This document shows, piece after piece, positions 3,612 to 61,552 of a stretch of 61,552 bases of DNA. The notes under the pieces were generated by a model. That model did no database searches. It was not told the DNA's origin and was given only the letters and a program-made list of their open reading frames with translations. This stretch comes from a virus (Duplodnaviria > Caudoviricetes). The translations under genes were made by a program, and so were the position numbers. The stretch covers positions 1 to 61,552 of IMG/VR virus record IMGVR_UViG_3300027706_000010. One strand, 5' to 3'. Position 1 is the stretch's first letter. The number at the start of each line of letters is the position of its first letter.

Positions 3612-3634
3612 AGAGCCAAAAATCGGAGGCCCTG

Positions 3635-4513
3635 GTGTCTTTTCCTCTTTCCTGGCTCTATCATCAATATGGCGGCTCCTTCCCGGTGGGAAGTGAGCGC
3701 TGCTACCTCTGTGGAGCATCCTGTGCCGCGACATATACCGTTGCGGCAGGCATTGCCGATACCTTCAATTCTCATTTTCTGGCAGTGTGCCCTCATTCGC
3801 CCTATCTTTGTGCTGCCTGCGCCTGGTACCTCGATGGCAAAGCGGACCATCCCGAATTTCGCAAGATGAGCCTGGTCGTTACCCGGCAAGCGTGGCGCAA
3901 TTGGGAGCGGGCAACTATGAAGCAGGATATTGCACGCTGGCTTGCCGGTGGTTTGCCGGAGGATGCCTACCTTGTGGTATCGCTGAGCAAGAAAAAGCAT
4001 ATCCTTCTGCAAGCGCCACTCAATGTAAGCAGCAGCTCCACGCTTGCGGTGCAGATCGAGGAACAGGTCGCCTATTTGACTGCGAGCGTGTGGGGAGAGA
4101 TGGATGCTGCATTTATGGCTCTGCTCGAATTAGGACACGGGAAAGGCGAAATTTTGAGTGGCGCATTGCATCCATCCGTGCTGCGCAAGCATGGCAGGAT
4201 TGCCGAGGCCCTCGCGCTCTCACGACAATTAGAGCGGTGGCGTGCCTCATCCTCTCTTGAGTTGCTGAGTTATGTTACAATCACGGAAAACAAGGAGGAG
4301 GCACCCCATGATGGACATAGAGGAAGAGGTGATCCCCCCGTATCGGCAGGAACTCGAACGGCATCAGATCGCGGCGGCGTTTCTGCGCGCCGTCTACAAC
4401 GGGATCGAGTGGGACGAGTGGGGGAAATATCGGATGACGATCTGGACGATTCTAGAGACGACGGTAGCCAATGCGGCCCGTATGTCTGCCAGTCTGCTCT
4501 CTTTCCAGAGTAA
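3635..4513 (+). CDS. csf1: Type IV CRISPR large subunit Csf1 (Cas8-like)
   Basis: N-terminal zinc finger CYLCG...CAAC, KKHI motif, first gene of a csf2/csf3/cysH operon. Confidence 0.75.
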   Translation: MSFPLSWLYHQYGGSFPVGSERCYLCGASCAATYTVAAGIADTFNSHFLAVCPHSPYLCAACAWYLDGKADHPEFRKMSLVVTRQAWRNWERATMKQDIARWLAGGLPEDAYLVVSLSKKKHILLQAPLNVSSSSTLAVQIEEQVAYLTASVWGEMDAAFMALLELGHGKGEILSGALHPSVLRKHGRIAEALALSRQLERWRASSSLELLSYVTITENKEEAPHDGHRGRGDPPVSAGTRTASDRGGVSARRLQRDRVGRVGEISDDDLDDSRDDGSQCGPYVCQSALFPE

Positions 4514-8526: not shown

Positions 8527-8562
8527 AAAGCGTCCGGGCATTCTTGCCCGGACGCTTCTTTT
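8527..8562 (+). terminator. Intrinsic terminator
   Basis: aagcgtccgggca-ttct-tgcccggacgctt followed by ctttt. Confidence 0.75.
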
Positions 8563-8723
8563 GTTGCTTTCTGCCACGTTGTTCTACTTGTTTGTATTCT
8601 CTGATATTTTCATATAGTACTATGAAGTTGTGAAGAGTCTAGGTAAATTGATGAGACTATGATATACTGTACAGGCATCCACACGGATGCCTATTTCTTT
8701 TGTCTCTGGATGGTTGTTTTCGT

Positions 8724-10175
8724 ATGCGAACGTTTAAGTATCGGCTCTATCCGACAAGGCGACAACAGGATGCCCTGCGATGGATTCTTGCCCGGTGTTG
8801 CGAATTATATAATGCTGCGCTCCAGGAGCGTCGTGATGCCTATGAGATGTGTGTCAGGCGGCATCCTGGCTATTATGATAAAGAGACGCGCCGAAAACAG
8901 ACGAGAGCGTATGCAATTACCAAATATGCTCAATCCAGAGAACTGACTGAAATTAAACATGAGATTCGCCCGGAGTATCAAGAAATTGGCGATCATGTTC
9001 TGCGCAATGTTTTGCAGCGTATTGATCTTGCATTTCAAGCGTTCTTTCGACGGGTGGCAGAGCGAGAGAAACACGGGGGTACAGGCAAAGTTGGGTATCC
9101 TCGTTTCAAAAGCTCCAGGCGGTATGATTCCTTTGCCACGGATAGCGCCTGTAAAATCCGCGATGGCCGTCTTGAGGTCAAGGGTGTGGGATGGGTTAAA
9201 GTCAAGCTCCATCGCCCGCTGTCAGGTGAGATTAAAACCTGGACGGTCAAACGGGAAGGGGAGCACTGGTATGTCTGTATCGTGTGCGATCAGGCGGCGC
9301 AAGAGACACCGCTCCCCTTCAATGGTGAGGCGGTTGGTATTGATCTTGGACTCCTGCATTTTGCCACGCTTTCGACCGGGGAAACGATTGAGAATCCGCG
9401 TTACTTTCGGCAGGCTGAGAAGAAGCTGGCCTTGCACCAGCAGGCGCTTGCGCGTAAGAAACGCAAAGATAAACGAACCGGATGTAAAGGGCATCGGCGG
9501 GAACGCGCGGTGAAACTGGTTGTCGCAGCGCATCGCAAGATCCGGAATCAGCGCCGCGATTTCCAGCACAAGGCATCGCGCCAGCTAGTGAATCGGTATG
9601 GCGCAATCGTATTCGAGGAGCTACAGCCTGCGAATCTCAGCAGGCGCCCAAAGGCGAAACAGGCTGAGGATGGGCATTACTTGCCCAATGGGGCCTCGGC
9701 AAAATCAGGACTCAATAAATCTATCTTAGATGCTGGTTGGGGCACGTTTGTACAGATGTGTGCGTACAAGGCGGAAGGGGCTGGTCGTGCGCTTGTGCAA
9801 GTCGATCCCAGAAATACCAGTCAGATCTGCTCAGGATGTGGAGAAATAGCCCATAAGAAGGATCTCAGCGAGCGCTGGCACGCATGTGCATGCGGGTGCT
9901 CGCTGGACCGCGACCATAATGCGGCGATCAACATTGTGCGGCGTGGGTTGGCATCTCTGAACCATGCAGATCTGAATTATCCAGCATTCCGCGAGGCAGA
10001 AAGCGGTGCTTTTCTCAAGCAGGATGCCTCGCAGCACACCGATGGGGGCGGGCCGCCCCTGCGCACCCGCAAGGGTGCGTGCACCCGCGAGGGTGCGTGC
10101 GCCCGCAAGGGCGCACTCAAGTCCTCTTCTTCTTCTCATGCTGCCTCGCAATTGGCGCTGTGGCCTGGCCTGTAA
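8724..10175 (+). CDS. tnpB: TnpB/Cas12f-like RNA-guided nuclease adjacent to CRISPR array
   Basis: MRTFKYRLYPT start, GYPRFK, RuvC-I GIDLG, RuvC-II VFEEL, zinc finger CSGC..CACG, RuvC-III DRDHNAA; about 65-aa low-complexity tail; no tnpA nearby. Confidence 0.9.
   Translation: MRTFKYRLYPTRRQQDALRWILARCCELYNAALQERRDAYEMCVRRHPGYYDKETRRKQTRAYAITKYAQSRELTEIKHEIRPEYQEIGDHVLRNVLQRIDLAFQAFFRRVAEREKHGGTGKVGYPRFKSSRRYDSFATDSACKIRDGRLEVKGVGWVKVKLHRPLSGEIKTWTVKREGEHWYVCIVCDQAAQETPLPFNGEAVGIDLGLLHFATLSTGETIENPRYFRQAEKKLALHQQALARKKRKDKRTGCKGHRRERAVKLVVAAHRKIRNQRRDFQHKASRQLVNRYGAIVFEELQPANLSRRPKAKQAEDGHYLPNGASAKSGLNKSILDAGWGTFVQMCAYKAEGAGRALVQVDPRNTSQICSGCGEIAHKKDLSERWHACACGCSLDRDHNAAINIVRRGLASLNHADLNYPAFREAESGAFLKQDASQHTDGGGPPLRTRKGACTREGACARKGALKSSSSSHAASQLALWPGL
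9990..10170 (+). ncRNA. Structured RNA overlapping tnpB 3' end (omegaRNA/tracrRNA-like)
   Basis: Three tandem GNRA hairpins (10061-80 GCAA, 10081-96 GCGA, 10097-116 GCAA), closing stem gcgaggcag/ctgcctcgc, partial anti-repeat at 10128-10166. Confidence 0.6.
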
Positions 10176-10196
10176 AGCGGCCTCTCATCACCGGCC

Positions 10197-10750
10197 CTTG
10201 CAAGGCATGATAAGGAAGATGGGGATAGGCCACTCGACAAAACTTAGGCAGCTAAAAGTACCGGTAATACCTTGCAAGGCATGATAAGGAAGATGGGGAT
10301 AGGCCACAGGAAGATTTTCAAAGATCCCGAACGGATGCCGCAGACCTTGCAAGGCATGATAAGGAAGATGGGGATAGGCCACACAGATTAAGAGCGGTGT
10401 CACACTGCCACTTCTTAACTTGCAAGGCATGATAAGGAAGATGGGGATAGGCCACGATTTAGACCATTGCGTTGACGAAGATGGGAACATCTTGCAAGGC
10501 ATGATAAGGAAGATGGGGATAGGCCACGCTCCGGTGGTATTCGCGCCCTGCACGGATATGCCGAACTTGCAAGGCATGATAAGGAAGATGGGGATAGGCC
10601 ACCCGTTCAATCCCCGTACCGGCGCTGGCGCTAGAGGACCTTGCAAGGCATGATAAGGAAGATGGGGATAGGCCACCCGTTCAATCCCCGTACCGGCGCT
10701 GGCGCTAGAGGACCTTGCAAGGCATGATAAGGAAGATGGGGATAGGCTAC
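10197..10750 (+). CRISPR. CRISPR array, 8 repeats and 7 spacers
   Basis: 37-bp repeat CTTGCAAGGCATGATAAGGAAGATGGGGATAGGCCAC at 10197, 10271, 10346, 10419, 10491, 10566, 10640, 10714 (last ends CTAC); spacers 35-38 bp; spacers 6 and 7 identical; strand inferred. Confidence 0.97.
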
Positions 10751-10755
10751 CACCT

Positions 10756-10974
10756 ATGAGAAGGAGATGGCTTGTGCGCCAGGAGAACCGGATGAGACAA
10801 ACCTTATATCAGCAATTGGCTGATTTTAAGCGACAGAATCCTAAAGTAGTGGAGGCAATGGAGCTTTTTGGCATAACGCTAATTCAGTACCAGCGAGCTT
10901 TAGAGGCTTTATATAATCCGCGTATTTACCAGAGTACTTCTACTGTGAGTGAGGAGAAGCCCTATTACTCATAA
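10756..10974 (+). CDS. Small hypothetical protein (start uncertain)
   Basis: ORF with AGGAG before ATG 10792. Confidence 0.45.
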   Translation: MRRRWLVRQENRMRQTLYQQLADFKRQNPKVVEAMELFGITLIQYQRALEALYNPRIYQSTSTVSEEKPYYS

Positions 10975-11425
10975 ACATTCGTGGCGCGGCCTTAATTAAT
11001 TTTCACAGAACAACAGACGCGCTTTTCTTGCAATACTCCGAGCTATCGTGATACAATGGTAGTGGCCGATCGAATGGTTGTTGCGAATATGTATGTTCTC
11101 CTTGCGAGACGCGGATCTCTGTATGGTCGGGATAGCAGAGGTCCGCGTTTCGTTTTCGTGTAGCGTTGTATAGGTACGTGCGAGTGAGAGTGATCTTTAC
11201 AAATCTCAGTGTGGTATGGTATGCTTTGCGCATGGATCCTTCAGGTTGTAATGTTTTTTAGGTTCCTTTTTGACCGGCGACATGAGAAGAGCCAGGTCCG
11301 TTCTCGCGCTGCTTGTGAAGACGGCCTGGTTTCTTCTTATGTGGCTCGTGTATCTCCTCTCGGCGCGTATCCAAGTGCGCTATGGGCCATTGTACGGTCA
11401 AGATGTTGACATTGAAAGTGGCTGA

Positions 11426-31939: not shown

Positions 31940-32482
31940 ATGCTGATCTTTTCACAAAGCGGCTTCCCCATTGGCACGATCCCGCGTGCCGGGGAGCCGT
32001 GCTATTGGGCTTTAAAACGCTCGGATGGCGTGTGGCTCTGCGAATACGATACGGTATCCGATGTGCTCTTCGGGGGCAAACGTCAGCTTGACTGGACGCT
32101 CGATATTGCCTCAACCCGGGACTGGCGCCGTATCAAAGAATTGTGGCTCTTTTGCCCGGCCACCCCCACAAGCCCGGCAGGGAACACGGCATGCTTGCCG
32201 ATCACCACGCCGGGCACGGCATTTCAACTCAAAGTTGCAACGATGGATAGCGTCATCTCTGAATCCATGCGTGCCGTACAGGCACACATCATTGGCCGGG
32301 TGATGGATGAATCTGGTGCCTGCGAGTGCTTCATCTTCGATTATGCCTTGCAAGGAATGCTGGCGAAGTGGACATCAAATATCTATCGTTTCGGAAGTTG
32401 GCGCGACGGGATCGCGCCCCTGGGGGCGCTGGCTCTGCCGGTGTTGGGGATCAATCTGCCGGTGATAACAGGAGGGAGATAA
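31940..32482 (+). CDS. Hypothetical tail-region protein
   Basis: AGGAG RBS. Confidence 0.55.
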   Translation: MLIFSQSGFPIGTIPRAGEPCYWALKRSDGVWLCEYDTVSDVLFGGKRQLDWTLDIASTRDWRRIKELWLFCPATPTSPAGNTACLPITTPGTAFQLKVATMDSVISESMRAVQAHIIGRVMDESGACECFIFDYALQGMLAKWTSNIYRFGSWRDGIAPLGALALPVLGINLPVITGGR

Positions 32483-39571: not shown

Positions 39572-39934
39572 ATGTCATCAAAAACCCAACAGGCCCTTAT
39601 CCAACTTCTCGAAAGTATGGCGATAACCGCGCTTATTGCCGGGCTGTTCAGTATCGGCACGATCCTTGCCGGGAATGGACCGATAGACTGGCGCCAGGTC
39701 GGCATCGCCTTTGGCCTCGCTGTCGCGTTCAGCCTCGCGCACAGCCTGGCAACCTATTTCAAAGCCAGCAACCAGGTCGAACTTGGCACCGCGATTGAAG
39801 CGGTAATCGACGCCATAGAACAGCGCTTCGGCGCTCTCGCCCAACCGATCACACCAGATCAAGCACCAATGGCCCCGAATCGCACTACGATGCTCAACAC
39901 GCCGTCTGTTGTCCAGGAGCATCCACCAGACTGA
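39572..39934 (+). CDS. Two-TM holin-like protein
   Basis: Two hydrophobic helices with IDW linker; AAAGGAGG RBS; stop codon lies within the IS end. Confidence 0.55.
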   Translation: MSSKTQQALIQLLESMAITALIAGLFSIGTILAGNGPIDWRQVGIAFGLAVAFSLAHSLATYFKASNQVELGTAIEAVIDAIEQRFGALAQPITPDQAPMAPNRTTMLNTPSVVQEHPPD

Positions 39935-39968
39935 CACTCCCCGCCTTAAAAGAGCGGGGGTTCTTCCT

Positions 39969-41174
39969 TCATCCAGCCACCTTGCCCGCTCTGGCCTTGC
40001 CAGAACGAGTAGCGGGTGTCTGTCCAGAAGCGTTTCGCCTCTTCTGAGAGAGGCCCGTTTCCGATTGCCCACCGGTACGGTCTAATGCCTTTGCGAGAAT
40101 GTTGAGAGCGGCATTGTGATCTCGATCAAGCACCAATCCACATCCAGAACAGATGTGTGTCCTGACAGAGAGGCTCTTCTTGACTCGTGTGCCACACGCT
40201 GAGCAATCCTGCGACGTCCAGGCCGGTTCAACGGCTATCACAGGGATGGTATGCACTTGCCCATAATAGGTGAGCCACGAGAGAAAGCGCCCCCAGGCCG
40301 CATCACTGATGCTCTTCGAGAGGTGTCGGTTTCTGACGAGGTTGGCTATCTTCAAGTCTTCGTAGGCAATGAAATCGCTAGATGTCACGAGCGTGCTTGC
40401 CGTTTTACGGGCAAAGTCTTCACGCTGCCTACTGACTTTCAGATACGCCTTTGCCAGTGCTTTCCTGGCTTTCTTCCTATTCTGAGATTGCTTTTGCTTG
40501 CGAGAAAGTCGTCTGTGCAGCTTCTTCAAGCGTTTTTCGGCTTTGCGCAGATGACGAGGGTTAGCTACAGTATTGCCTTCTGAGTCCGTTAAGAACGCCT
40601 TCAAGCCCATATCGATGCCAACCTGTTTGCCGGTAGGGATATGCTCAATCTGTCTCTCTGCATCAACAGCAAACTGAGCATAGTAGCCATCGGCCCGCTT
40701 GACAATCCGTACCCGCTTGATTTGCTTCGTGGGGAACTCTTCAATGCGTTGGTTCTTGTTGCCTACAAGCCGCAAGCGTCCAATGTTGCAACCATCGGTG
40801 AAGGTGATATGCTTGCCATCCGGCTCCAACTTCCAGCCCGTTTGTTTATACTCGACACTCCTGTTATCATGCTGGAAGCGGGGATAGCCCTTCTTGCCGG
40901 GCTTGTGGGTCTTGCAATTGGCATAGAAGCGTGAGATAGCCGCCCACGCTCGTTCAGCAGCCGCTTGCCGCGCTTGAGAATTGAGTTTTGAGGCAAAAAG
41001 AAACTCTTTTGCAAGCTGAGAGCAAGCTGCGTTAAGATCATAGCCATTCGTGCCACGAGTGTCCATCCACAAGCGAAGTGCCTTGTTACGGATGAACTGC
41101 ACAATGCGTATCGCCTCATCAATGGCGGCATATTGTTCTTTGGTGCCACGCAGCTTGTACTCAAAAATCAGCAT
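39969..41174 (-). CDS. tnpB: IS605 TnpB
   Basis: GIDMG, AYEDL, CSAC..CSGC, DRDHNAA. Confidence 0.92.
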   Translation of the reverse strand: MLIFEYKLRGTKEQYAAIDEAIRIVQFIRNKALRLWMDTRGTNGYDLNAACSQLAKEFLFASKLNSQARQAAAERAWAAISRFYANCKTHKPGKKGYPRFQHDNRSVEYKQTGWKLEPDGKHITFTDGCNIGRLRLVGNKNQRIEEFPTKQIKRVRIVKRADGYYAQFAVDAERQIEHIPTGKQVGIDMGLKAFLTDSEGNTVANPRHLRKAEKRLKKLHRRLSRKQKQSQNRKKARKALAKAYLKVSRQREDFARKTASTLVTSSDFIAYEDLKIANLVRNRHLSKSISDAAWGRFLSWLTYYGQVHTIPVIAVEPAWTSQDCSACGTRVKKSLSVRTHICSGCGLVLDRDHNAALNILAKALDRTGGQSETGLSQKRRNASGQTPATRSGKARAGKVAG

Positions 41175-41569
41175 CAGGTTCGACTCTGCCTCTCAATGTA
41201 TTTCTGTATCGTGTCCTGACTGACAAAGCCAGCCGTGCTATAGAAGGTGCTTCGTGTCCACAGCGAGGGCATCCGCTTGAGATGAGGAAATTCTTCCCGC
41301 ATGTGATGCGAGGAACGGCCCTTTATCAAGCGGGGAATGTCCGTAGGCAGCGTGTAGGGATTGGCCTGAATGAACAGATGCACGTGATCTGGCTGAATTG
41401 CCAGTTCGACAATTTTCCACCCGTTTTCTTCTGCCACTTCACGGACGATCTGCTCGAAACGGTCACGTACTGGCCCTACCAGTATCTTGCGCCTTCGTTT
41501 CGGGCAAAAGATGATATGGTAGAGAATGTGATGAACCGTATGTTGTTCGTGAATATACTCGTCACTCAT
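41174..41569 (-). CDS. tnpA: IS200 Y1 transposase
   Basis: YHIIFCPKRRR, HUH motif DHVH, KGRSS, LWTRS, KYIE. Confidence 0.92.
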   Translation of the reverse strand: MSDEYIHEQHTVHHILYHIIFCPKRRRKILVGPVRDRFEQIVREVAEENGWKIVELAIQPDHVHLFIQANPYTLPTDIPRLIKGRSSHHMREEFPHLKRMPSLWTRSTFYSTAGFVSQDTIQKYIERQSRT

Positions 41570-41762
41570 GTATACAAGTATAGCGCAAACAACATACCTT
41601 GTCAACATTCCCCACCCTATCCCCAACTAAGGAACGGCGCTCTCATCCCCCGCTTGAAAGACGGGGGTTTTCCCGCGCCGGTTGTATAACCCCAGGCACC
41701 ACCCCCGTCAGATATGGCTCAGAATGCAAAATTGAAAGCCCCAATGCAGGTACAGGCGCAAT

Positions 41763-59952: not shown

Positions 59953-61420
59953 GAGAACGTTTCTAAGAAATGATGTCACCTGTTGACATGTGCGTACAAA
60001 CATGCTACAATCCTTCCATGAAGTTAAGTCAGTACGCCAAACAACAAGGCATCAGCTATCGAACAGCTTTACGCTGGTTTCGGGCGGGTACCATCAAAGG
60101 CTATCAGGCTCCCACTGGCACCATCATCGTGACAGAGGGAGAAAAACCGCCTGTTCATCTTGAGAAGGTTGCCATTTATGCTCGCGTCTCATCTGCTGAA
60201 CACAAAGCCAACTTAGAGAGACAAGCAGAACGGTTGCTACAGTATTGTGAGGCGCGCGGCTATCAGGTGGTACAAGTGGTGAAAGAGATTGCATCGGGCG
60301 TCAATGATAGCCGCCCGAAACTCATTGGACTCTTGAAGGATACGAGCATCACCCTGATTGTGGTAGAGCATCGAGACCGTCTGACTCGTTTCGGGTTTCA
60401 CTATCTGGAAACGCTCTTAGAAGTTCAGGGACGCAAGATCGAAGTGGTGAATGTGGCTGAGGATGACAAAGAGGACTTGATTGCTGATCTGGTAGCCATT
60501 GTTTACTCATTCACCGCCCGATTGTATGGGCAACGACGTGCTAAGCGGAAGACAGAAGCCTTAGTTGAGCAGTTACAAAGTGAGGACAAGTAGATGCAAC
60601 TGGTAGAGCAGCATGTGATTCGTAAAAATGACCCACGCTATGAGGCCATAGATCGTGCTGCTTTCGCGTCCAAGAATCTCTACAATGCTGCAAACTACCT
60701 TGTCCGACAAGCCTTCATCTTTCAGGGCACCTACCTGGGTTATGCTGAAATCTTCCATCTGCTGAAGGGGCATGACGCCTATCAAGCCTTACCACGTAAG
60801 GTGAGCAACGATGTCCTGAGGCTCTTAGATAAGAACTGGAAAAGCTTCTTCAAAGCAATCAAAGCGTGGAAAGCCCATCCTGAGCAGTTTTTAGGGCGGC
60901 CCAAACTGCCTGGTTACAAGGATAAAATCGAGGGGCGAAACATTCTTATCTATGATATTCAAGCACTCAGTAAGACGGCATTGCGAAAGGGGATAATTGC
61001 GCCGTCGCAACTTGGTATCACTGTTCAGACACAGCAGACGAACGTTAAGCAAGTCCGTATCATTCCTAAATCTACTCATTACGTGATTGAAGTGGTCTAT
61101 GAGCAAGAGCCTGAACAGGCAAGCGTGGATGCTTCACTCGTGGCCGGTATTGATTTGGGATTAGACAATCTGGCAACGCTTACCAGTAACAAGCCTGGTT
61201 TTGCGCCACGTCTGATAAGCGGCAAGCTCCTGAAGAGTATCAATCAGGGCTATAACAAGCGACGTGCAGAGCTTCAAAGCCAACTCAAGAACCGTTTTAC
61301 ATCCCGCCAACTTGAGCGGCTTACCGACAAGCGCAATCGACGTATCAAGCACCTTCTCCATAGTGCGTCCAAACAGATTGTTGCTTTGTTGGTAGCGGAA
61401 GGCATTGGCACCCTGGTCAT
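59953..61420 (+). mobile_element. IS607-family element, interrupted
   Basis: Serine transposase plus tnpB, starting at the repeat boundary. Confidence 0.85.
60018..60593 (+). CDS. tnpA: IS607 serine transposase
   Basis: N-terminal HTH, IYARVSS, EIASG, EHRDRLTRFG, FTARLYG. Confidence 0.92.
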   Translation: MKLSQYAKQQGISYRTALRWFRAGTIKGYQAPTGTIIVTEGEKPPVHLEKVAIYARVSSAEHKANLERQAERLLQYCEARGYQVVQVVKEIASGVNDSRPKLIGLLKDTSITLIVVEHRDRLTRFGFHYLETLLEVQGRKIEVVNVAEDDKEDLIADLVAIVYSFTARLYGQRRAKRKTEALVEQLQSEDK

Positions 61421-61427
61421 CCTATAG
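60594..61427 (+). pseudogene. tnpB: IS607 TnpB truncated just before RuvC-II
   Basis: SKNLYN and GIDLG present; ends at GIGTLVI, where foreign sequence begins. Confidence 0.8.
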
Positions 61428-61552
61428 GCGCAGGAGACCCCTGCCTTCAGGCGTGGGGAGGAATGCGCCCTCTCCTTTCTCGTGCTGACAATATCCTGGT
61501 ATATATGATATACTCTCTGTATGGATAGAACAATAATTGTCCAACTGAAGCC
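61421..61552 (+). mobile_element. Left end of a second IS200/IS605/IS1341-like element
   Basis: Hairpin cccctgccttcaggcgtgggg, promoter CTGACA..TATACT, ORF start MDRTIIVQLK at 61521. Confidence 0.65.

Follow-up and report, generated by a model that had tools for sequence, protein, structure and literature searches.

The virus record IMGVR_UViG_3300027706_000010 (IMG/VR; Caudoviricetes), a complete soil phage record of 61,552 bp that was analyzed over its whole length (the window), carries a tnpB-like gene whose 3' end runs into a structured RNA region and is followed by an array resembling clustered regularly interspaced short palindromic repeats (CRISPR). The locus is best explained, with a probability that we put at about 0.75, as a phage-borne CRISPR-like system derived from TnpB, that is, an intermediate between transposon and CRISPR of the TranC or type V-U* kind, in which a scaffold derived from an omegaRNA is combined with an array that arose de novo. 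The surrounding genes, which include those for a terminase, a portal, a tape-measure protein, an amidase and an integrase, are phage genes.

The product of the tnpB-like gene, P0001, was assigned by comparison with protein families and solved structures. Pfam domains HTH_OrfB_IS605, OrfB_IS605 and Cas12f1-like_TNB were detected, and the NCBIfam model guided_TnpB was matched at 284 bits (cut-off 100); the scores for the models C2c8 (191.3 bits) and Cas12f2 (68.8 bits) fell short of their curated cut-offs of 350 and 450, respectively. The top match among solved structures was ISDra2 TnpB (PDB 8bf8, 8h1j and 8exa; E 6e-43, residues 27-416), followed by weaker matches to Cas12n (9j09; E 3e-24) and to LaTranC (E 3e-6, C-terminal part only). 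The columns of the RuvC residues D207, E298 and D397 and of the zinc-finger cysteines C369, C372, C388 and C390 were invariant in an alignment of 25 sequences. By these sequence criteria, P0001 is an ISDra2-type TnpB nuclease with its catalytic residues intact. Homologs with 54-63% identity were ordinary TnpBs of about 400 amino acids, mostly from Ktedonobacteria, whose C-terminus lies about 75 residues earlier. No relative of P0001 exceeded 63% identity, the nearest protein (63%) had no array, and close relatives were absent from the viral collection searched.

The C-terminal tail of P0001 was missing in 23 of the 24 aligned homologs, and a search of 5.8 billion proteins with the tail alone returned only P0001 itself. 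AlphaFold2 assigned a high predicted local distance difference test score to the core and a score below 35 to residues 428-483, and these last 56 or so residues are predicted to be disordered. A tail resemblance between P0012 and P0001 was weak in the alignment and was unconfirmed by the tail-only search. No tnpA flanks the gene at 8724-10175 and the phage holds no second copy of it; neither a nearby tnpA nor several copies with defined ends, as would mark a mobile insertion sequence (IS), were thus found.

Folding predictions showed that the 3' end of tnpB and the 22 nt beyond it (approximately 9990-10196) form a structured RNA region. An earlier note on this DNA had described three tandem GNRA-loop hairpins and an anti-repeat in the tail of the gene, and its coordinates and strings all proved exact on direct reading of the letters. 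The three hairpins (10061-10116), built from an 18-nt tandem family with copies that are 100, 94 and 78% identical, folded at -45.7 kcal/mol (z = -6.4), and none of 200 shuffled sequences was as stable. Because 10061-10116 translates into the RKGAC-like motif of the protein tail, the hairpins account for the odd RKGAC repeats, as had been proposed. It had also been argued that the GNRA loops point to an RNA from the plus strand; the loops are indeed GNRA on the plus strand only, but the minus strand of 10061-10116 folded nearly as well (-42.8 kcal/mol, z = -5.4). Scaffold and first repeat folded together (9980-10234) gave a z of -3.4, with the stem between anti-repeat and repeat included. Across the scaffold, the tnpB reading frame continues for 75 codons without a stop, and no Rfam family matched the window at the gathering thresholds.

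The array begins 22 nt past the tnpB stop codon on the same strand, and an effector of the TnpB lineage is thus followed directly by an array. Eight repeats were detected where none was expected by chance, and seven of them are identical across 37 nt, the degenerate one being distal. The repeat terminates in GGGG-N6-CAC, and every spacer follows this end at once. The spacers resemble neither one another nor the phage, with the exception of spacers 6 (10603-10639) and 7 (10677-10713), whose identity reflects a tandem duplication of a 74-nt repeat-spacer unit. Family scans of the window detected neither Cas1, Cas2 or Cas4 nor any other cas gene, and the spacers have no self-target within the window. 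The repeat, with up to three mismatches allowed, was found in none of 169 Ktedonobacteria genomes, and its core was absent from the viral collection searched.

Pairing between the scaffold and the repeat was predicted both by folding and by cofolding. When 9980-10234 was folded, 10121-10151 paired to the first repeat, and cofolding with the repeat, a check proposed in the earlier note, yielded 25 pairs to repeat bases 2-30 and three outer pairs. The likeness of 10128-10151 to the reverse complement of the repeat, which that note had pointed out, reads as quoted and pairs in both predictions, although it is only modestly above chance. Twenty-one of 2000 mononucleotide shuffles of the 38-nt anti-repeat segment bound the repeat equally well, and 14 other loci on the plus strand and 11 on the minus strand of the window bound it as well or better. 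The in silico duplex of 25 bp, the kind expected if trans-activating CRISPR RNA (tracrRNA) has been split from CRISPR RNA (crRNA), is thus of moderate significance, and its evidential weight comes from its location; the chance of such a site on the right strand within 100 nt before the array is roughly 0.02. The repeat was correctly described as having no strong hairpin of its own (-2.4 kcal/mol; 170 of 200 shuffles equally stable), and GTGGCCT (10160-10166) is the exact complement of its last seven bases, AGGCCAC. Together with the main duplex, the latter pairing would amount to a pseudoknot, whose role is hypothetical. Guide RNAs of TnpB and Cas12f have a short helix or pseudoknot beside the guide. 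A promoter and terminator scan of 10152-10196 detected no sigma-70-like promoter and no clear terminator-like site.

The predicted fold changed with the presence of the repeat. When the CRISPR repeat was left out, the 5' strand of hairpin A (9991-9999) paired with the top of the anti-repeat (10142-10150) and enclosed all the hairpins; when it was included, hairpin A formed locally. Such alternative pairing of hairpin A and anti-repeat may act as a switch. A direct repeat (10020-10033 and 10137-10150, 12 of 14 positions) was also observed, by which the top of the anti-repeat resembles the 3' strand of hairpin A.

The omegaRNAs of relatives provided the framework for interpreting this region. 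A model of the canonical omegaRNA 3' module built from 18 relatives (R1) runs from H1 and H2 through a GAGAAG linker that is invariant to a CCCC-stem-GGGG hairpin and a tail that closes with TCAC, with one H2 before the linker, and 16 of its 19 pairs show compensated changes. R1 recovered held-out relatives (L089, 69.5 bits; L088, 36.9 bits; L169, 33.7 bits; L202, 87.1 bits). The omegaRNAs of the relatives end in GGGG...TCAC directly before the guide, as the phage repeat ends in its GGGG and CAC before the spacer. In two copies of a single relative IS, the sequences part immediately behind ...TTCAC, so the border between scaffold and guide corresponds to the border between repeat and spacer in the phage.

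The closest TnpB relative among the viral loci retrieved (L087, 57% identical to P0001) has a longer omegaRNA-like region, which comprises H1 and H2 together with one more hairpin on the 5' side and a long terminal stem of pyrimidine and purine strands that comprises 26+3 pairs, compared with 25+3 in the phage. Its H1, H2 and GAGAA were matched weakly by R1 (11.7 bits, E 0.1). A covariance model made from the L087 region alone (R2) had its best match in the entire 61.5-kb window, both strands considered, at 9990-10107 on the plus strand (25.1 bits, rough E 4e-5), and the runner-up reached 12.1 bits. The start of the scaffold at 9990, as the earlier note had it, was thereby obtained independently, and the region begins where the omegaRNAs of the relatives begin. 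Homology of the 5' scaffold to the L087 omegaRNA region is supported by this match. The scaffold did not stand out when the L087 region was slid along the window in a Smith-Waterman scan, and the L087 region gave one short, weak match in the 169 genomes.

Arrays beside tnpB were rare in the loci surveyed. None was detected downstream of tnpB in 80 genome loci or in 30 Ktedonobacteria loci, and one was detected in 80 viral loci (L094); the three other viral loci that had been flagged contained unrelated tandem repeats. The TnpB of L094, a 172-kb virus contig, is 41% identical to P0001 and belongs to a different lineage. R1 detected a canonical H1 and H2 in L094 (22.3 bits, E 4e-6), the H2 with a GCAA loop, and of its four 32-nt repeats the first closes the terminal stem (z -4.7). 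The layout of L094 is that of the phage locus and arose separately. The second spacer of L094 was observed to be 91% identical to the 3' end of its own tnpB (3631-3665 and 3902-3936), over the part coding for NAAINILRLG and the beginning of the omegaRNA; this spacer may be directed at related TnpB elements, or it may reflect the way in which the array was built. A phage with a terminase 68% identical to that of the present phage (L202) carries, at 1-300 and in the syntenic position upstream of the terminase genes, a TnpB (C-terminal 96 amino acids, 65% identical) with a textbook short omegaRNA, the one recovered by R1 at 87.1 bits, and no array.

Spacer 2 has a natural target. It matched all 38 positions in four metagenome contigs (L083-L086), and in two sequencing runs of different studies an exact copy lay on separate contigs, amid unrelated flanks and at a depth unlike that of the phage. 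In L085, the protospacer is on the sense strand of a gene for a 69-amino acid helix-turn-helix (HTH) protein of the Cro/CI type, adjacent to an HTH/excisionase-like gene and to a tyrosine integrase gene whose product is 55% identical to the phage's own integrase. From this gene neighborhood, the target appears to be another temperate element that is distantly related and is most likely a phage. Parts of spacers 1, 2 and 6 had no match in the viral collection; spacers 3, 4 and 5 were left out of the viral and metagenome scans. The whole array had one weak match among GenBank phages (E 7) and none in the 169 Ktedonobacteria genomes. tnpB and scaffold showed 0 differences over 8600-10225 between runs from two different studies, and the pieces of the array recovered in runs of three studies were the same, with no turnover observed. 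The features of the locus are listed in Table 1.

Table 1. Positions, in the window, of the tnpB-like gene, the RNA elements, the array and the spacer with a known target.
Feature	Position	Strand	Remarks
tnpB-like gene, 483 aa (P0001)	8724..10175	+	Core approximately residues 1-415; tail approximately 416-483, coded within the RNA scaffold
Scaffold hairpin A, basal stem GCGAGGCA / UGCCUCGC	9991..10032	+	Fold; same stem letters in the L087 omegaRNA region, aligned by model R2
Scaffold hairpin H1, G-rich / C-rich, GGGCC core	10044..10060	+	Fold; aligned by R2 to H1 of L087
Three tandem GNRA-loop hairpins, 18-nt unit triplicated	10061..10116	+	Putative positional equivalent of the single H2 of relatives
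GNRA hairpin 1, GCAA loop	10061-10080	+	
GNRA hairpin 2, GCGA loop	10081-10096	+	
GNRA hairpin 3, GCAA loop	10097-10116	+	
Anti-repeat, pyrimidine-rich 5' strand of terminal stem	10121..10151	+	Pairs with repeat bases 2-30; significance moderate
Apical/linker segment, anti-repeat to first repeat	10152..10196	+	GTGGCCT at 10160-10166; stop codon of tnpB at 10173-10175
CRISPR-like array, 8 repeats of 37 nt and 7 spacers of 35-38 nt	10197..10750	+	Last repeat degenerate, 1 mismatch
Spacer 2, exact 38/38 protospacers on another mobile element	10308..10345	+	Contigs in two sequencing runs and metagenome contigs L083-L086

The proposal that an omegaRNA was converted into a tracrRNA-like scaffold, which closed the earlier note, was supported by the identity of the TnpB, the R2 match, the position of the border and the target of spacer 2. 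The scaffold is still contiguous with repeat 1, however, and can be read as an intact omegaRNA to which further repeat-spacer units have been added, so that conversion is half of the story.

Several results weigh against the interpretation of the locus as a TnpB-derived CRISPR-like system. The hairpin formed in cis with repeat 1 should compete with the use of the scaffold in trans. No RNA run was present among the sequencing runs listed as carrying the region, and the transcript ends and the division between cis and trans are predictions from models. R1 had no match at 9990-10233, the R2 match is carried by hairpin A and H1 with the terminal stem misassigned to the GNRA hairpins, and blastn and nhmmer comparisons of the scaffold with the loci of relatives and of the L087 region with the window gave nothing significant. 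All copies of the scaffold found were identical and offer no variation for covariation analysis. A segment at 32316-32360 complements the repeat better than the anti-repeat does (-41 kcal/mol, 15-bp run). A target is known for one of the six distinct spacers, and the 5' flank of the L085 target (...CGGTG) is not T-rich and is unlike the TTGAA motif that flanks a relative IS; one target cannot define a protospacer-adjacent motif (PAM). The repeat agreed with the 3' strand of the L087 terminal stem at 20 of 36 positions in a hand alignment, which is within chance, given that random sites in the TnpB loci attained 23-24 of 37.

Recognizable sequence homology between the repeat and the L087 3' strand was therefore dropped. 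The 15 best ungapped matches of the repeat in 1.02 Mb of TnpB loci covered 22-24 of 37 positions and did not include the L087 right end, and MAFFT placed the repeat on the apical segment of L087 when the two terminal stems were aligned, which makes a one-to-one mapping of the stems ambiguous. Given the R2 match and a repeat similarity within chance, homology is supported for the 5' scaffold, and the equivalence of the repeat to the former 3' strand of the stem is one of position and architecture, from which we infer it.

Much of the same evidence bears on other explanations. The repeats could be a relic without function today, left by tandem copying of the right end of the transposon together with its flank, and TnpB would use at most the first guide as an omegaRNA. 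Such a history fits the absence of a detectable adaptation module, the plain tandem duplication of spacers 6 and 7, the uniformity of the array in runs of three studies and the expectation that the cis hairpin should beat pairing in trans. It does not fit the identity of seven of the eight repeats over 37 nt next to spacers unrelated to one another and to the phage, the exact 38-nt match of spacer 2 to a gene on a co-occurring element, or the intact nuclease residues, and we regard it as unlikely. Phages carry orphan mini-arrays, and the locus might also consist of chance neighbors, an ordinary TnpB transposon beside a captured, host-derived array that is served by an effector of the host, with a coincidental anti-repeat. 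Chance proximity is one of the two routes of linkage between TnpB and arrays named by Altae-Tran et al. (2023; PMC10691335), and it would accommodate an anti-repeat that is moderately above chance and a repeat with no significant resemblance to the 3' strands of omegaRNAs. We consider it quite improbable, since all 169 Ktedonobacteria genomes lack the repeat and the viral collection lacks its core, the array starts 22 nt past the tnpB stop codon on the same strand, the GGGG...CAC end of the repeat falls exactly at the spacer like the scaffold-guide border of an omegaRNA, no other cas gene was found in the phage, and L094 has the same layout independently.

An explanation that dispenses with a scaffold is that the 18-nt repeats matter as a basic, nucleic-acid-binding protein tail (RKGAC x3) or as a signal between tnpB and the array that terminates or attenuates transcription. 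The open frame of 75 codons and the stable minus-strand fold can be cited for it, as can a terminator scan that flagged 10108-10125 and the T/C-rich run that follows. The flagged stem has five pairs, however, and the run is a mixture of C and T rather than a U-tract; 75 open codons at about 60% GC have a chance of about 9% by a rough estimate; and the tail is predicted to be disordered and has no relatives among 5.8 billion proteins. A tracrRNA within a dispensable, unstructured tail has likewise been reported for Cas12n (preprint). This explanation is very unlikely.

If the locus is a TnpB-derived CRISPR-like system, the following mechanism can be proposed. Transcription from upstream of tnpB would run on through scaffold and array, and the scaffold, repeat 1 and spacer 1 would constitute one omegaRNA-like guide in cis. 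The CRISPR repeat would be the former 3' strand of the omegaRNA terminal stem with the GGGG...CAC tail, the three GNRA hairpins would be a triplicated scaffold hairpin H2, and the RKGAC tail of the protein would be a by-product of reading through an RNA gene. Further repeat-spacer units may have come from tandem duplication of the right-end/guide unit, and the identity of spacers 6 and 7 agrees with such an origin. Once separated from repeat 1, scaffold molecules could serve as tracrRNA in trans for the downstream repeat-spacer units, pairing of anti-repeat and repeat placing the spacer at the position of an omegaRNA guide, and TnpB would then cut DNA that matches the spacer beside a 5' motif. 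The system may aid the phage against competing phages, either by excluding superinfection, for instance, or by attacking a resident prophage. A bolder extension, which we offer as a tentative possibility, is that an array is being born on the phage without Cas1-Cas2, through tandem growth, capture of spacers by transposition or recombination, and dual modes of action as omegaRNA in cis and tracrRNA:crRNA in trans. New spacers might in that case be captured, for instance, as the flanks of former insertion sites in rival phages.

The locus belongs to a known kind. TranC systems, attributed to Jin et al. (2025) in two reviews and a preprint, are described there as TnpB lineages in which the right-end RNA was split into tracrRNA and crRNA. 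The phage locus resembles them, as far as those accounts go, in having a TnpB-sized effector of TnpB lineage by an array, a right-end or omega RNA that is predicted to have been reorganized into a scaffold and a repeat-derived crRNA, and no adaptation genes. It differs in that the LaTranC structures are only remotely similar to P0001 in sequence (the C-terminal match at E 3e-6) and in that its scaffold, located within the tail of the open reading frame (ORF), has remained joined to the first repeat. The comparison was based on published descriptions and the LaTranC structures, and P0001 was given no TranC clade assignment. According to a preprint (bioRxiv 10.64898/2026.03.27.714800), CauTranC9 is a TnpB-sized nuclease of TranC clade 9 from a Caudoviricetes genome whose array targets phages. 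By that description the two loci are alike in being phage-borne, TnpB-sized and ISDra2-like, with a small array and native spacers directed, in the present phage putatively, against phage, and the repeats of CauTranC9 measure 38 bp and number five, compared with 37 nt and eight in the present phage. None of the TranC subtypes in that preprint is stated to have an unstructured tail carrying the tracrRNA, and the phage locus, with a putative scaffold carried by an ORF tail predicted to be unstructured, is in this respect unlike them.

Comparison with other TnpB-related systems gave a similar picture. As in ISDra2 TnpB of the IS200/IS605 family, the putative scaffold coincides in part with the 3' end of its gene, and the guide would come after the scaffold's 3' end; unlike it, the phage locus has no adjacent tnpA or second copy, has a seven-spacer array in place of one guide, and has a terminal hairpin that has grown to about 25 bp and a triplicated scaffold hairpin. 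Altae-Tran et al. (PNAS 2023; PMC10691335) distinguished 40 V-U* branches and suggested the birth of arrays via 'serial duplication of omegaRNA segments'. Type V-U* and Cas12f-like systems, as described, share with the phage locus an array downstream of the effector that mimics the omegaRNA position, the absence of cas1, cas2 and cas4 and the shortness of the array. The phage lineage differs from them in being a singleton whose nearest protein, 63% identical, has no array, and in scoring below the C2c8 and Cas12f2 cut-offs. At least two TnpB clusters linked to arrays are required by Altae-Tran et al. (2023; PMC10691335), and a conserved association of effector and array in that sense was not found for this singleton. 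Cas12n (type V-N), which the preprint describes as having a tracrRNA within a dispensable, unstructured C-terminal ORF tail and expanded REC and WED domains, is comparable in the placing of a guide scaffold inside such a tail, although its structure 9j09 matches P0001 far less well than TnpB does (E 3e-24 vs. 6e-43). Among the systems compared here, particular to the phage locus are the singleton phage lineage, the ORF-tail scaffold continuous with repeat 1, the triplicated hairpin and the natural target.

Other observations concern the surroundings of the locus and the rest of the phage. The left end and target motif of the tnpB element at 8724-10175 were not identified; the left end was not searched for systematically, and upstream of the L087 gene nothing was obviously alike. 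A strong terminator-like hairpin (8528-8557) and a second hairpin (8673-8692) lie just 5' of the tnpB start, and the second possibly remains from the left end of a transposon. A 10-bp palindrome, CCTTGCAAGG, starts five of the eight repeats if the base before each repeat is included, and it occurs at four more sites outside the array (20695, 21888, 29253 and 32346; 0.07 expected in the whole window), of which 32346 is the only one with wider similarity to the repeat. The minus strand of 32316-32360 resembles a diverged solo repeat (CTTGCAAGGCAT.AT..GAAGATG...GGCAC) and sits within a tail-module ORF (31940-32482) without a family match. Downstream of the array, 10795-10975 (ORF 10756-10974) has a relative with 22 differences in contigs of three runs that are unlike the phage on both sides; a related phage co-occurs, in which the sequence upstream of the 10756-10974 gene is below the 80% likeness threshold.

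Two more elements of the TnpB type were detected in the phage. A complete pair of the IS200/IS605 type on the minus strand (39969-41626) comprises a Y1 transposase (41174-41626) and a second TnpB (39969-41174), which is the only other full TnpB of the phage and is 38% identical to P0001; R1 had a weak match just downstream of it (39931-40005, 11.5 bits, E 0.12). A serine resolvase (59970-60593) is followed by a TnpB-like ORF of 277 amino acids (60594-61427) with an OrfB_IS605 domain only, and a hairpin at 61438-61458 resembles an omegaRNA or IS-end hairpin (16.1 bits). The segment 59970-61458, close to where the record ends, has the appearance of an IS607-type element that may be truncated.

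It is now accepted that type V CRISPR systems were born from TnpB transposons several times independently, and few loci show the anatomy of an intermediate between TnpB and type V so plainly: the scaffold can still be read as one omegaRNA up to the first spacer, and extra units follow. The plain TnpB and omegaRNA state is represented by L202 and an independent instance of the same layout by L094, and the target of spacer 2 ties the locus to conflict between phages. Whether a single scaffold can serve in cis as well as in trans, by what route spacers are added without Cas1-Cas2, and what PAM such an effector has are questions that the locus makes testable. With a core of about 415 amino acids, P0001 is also a compact candidate editor. 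If an array is indeed being born on this phage, a homing guide would have become a multi-target weapon against the immunity region of a competitor.

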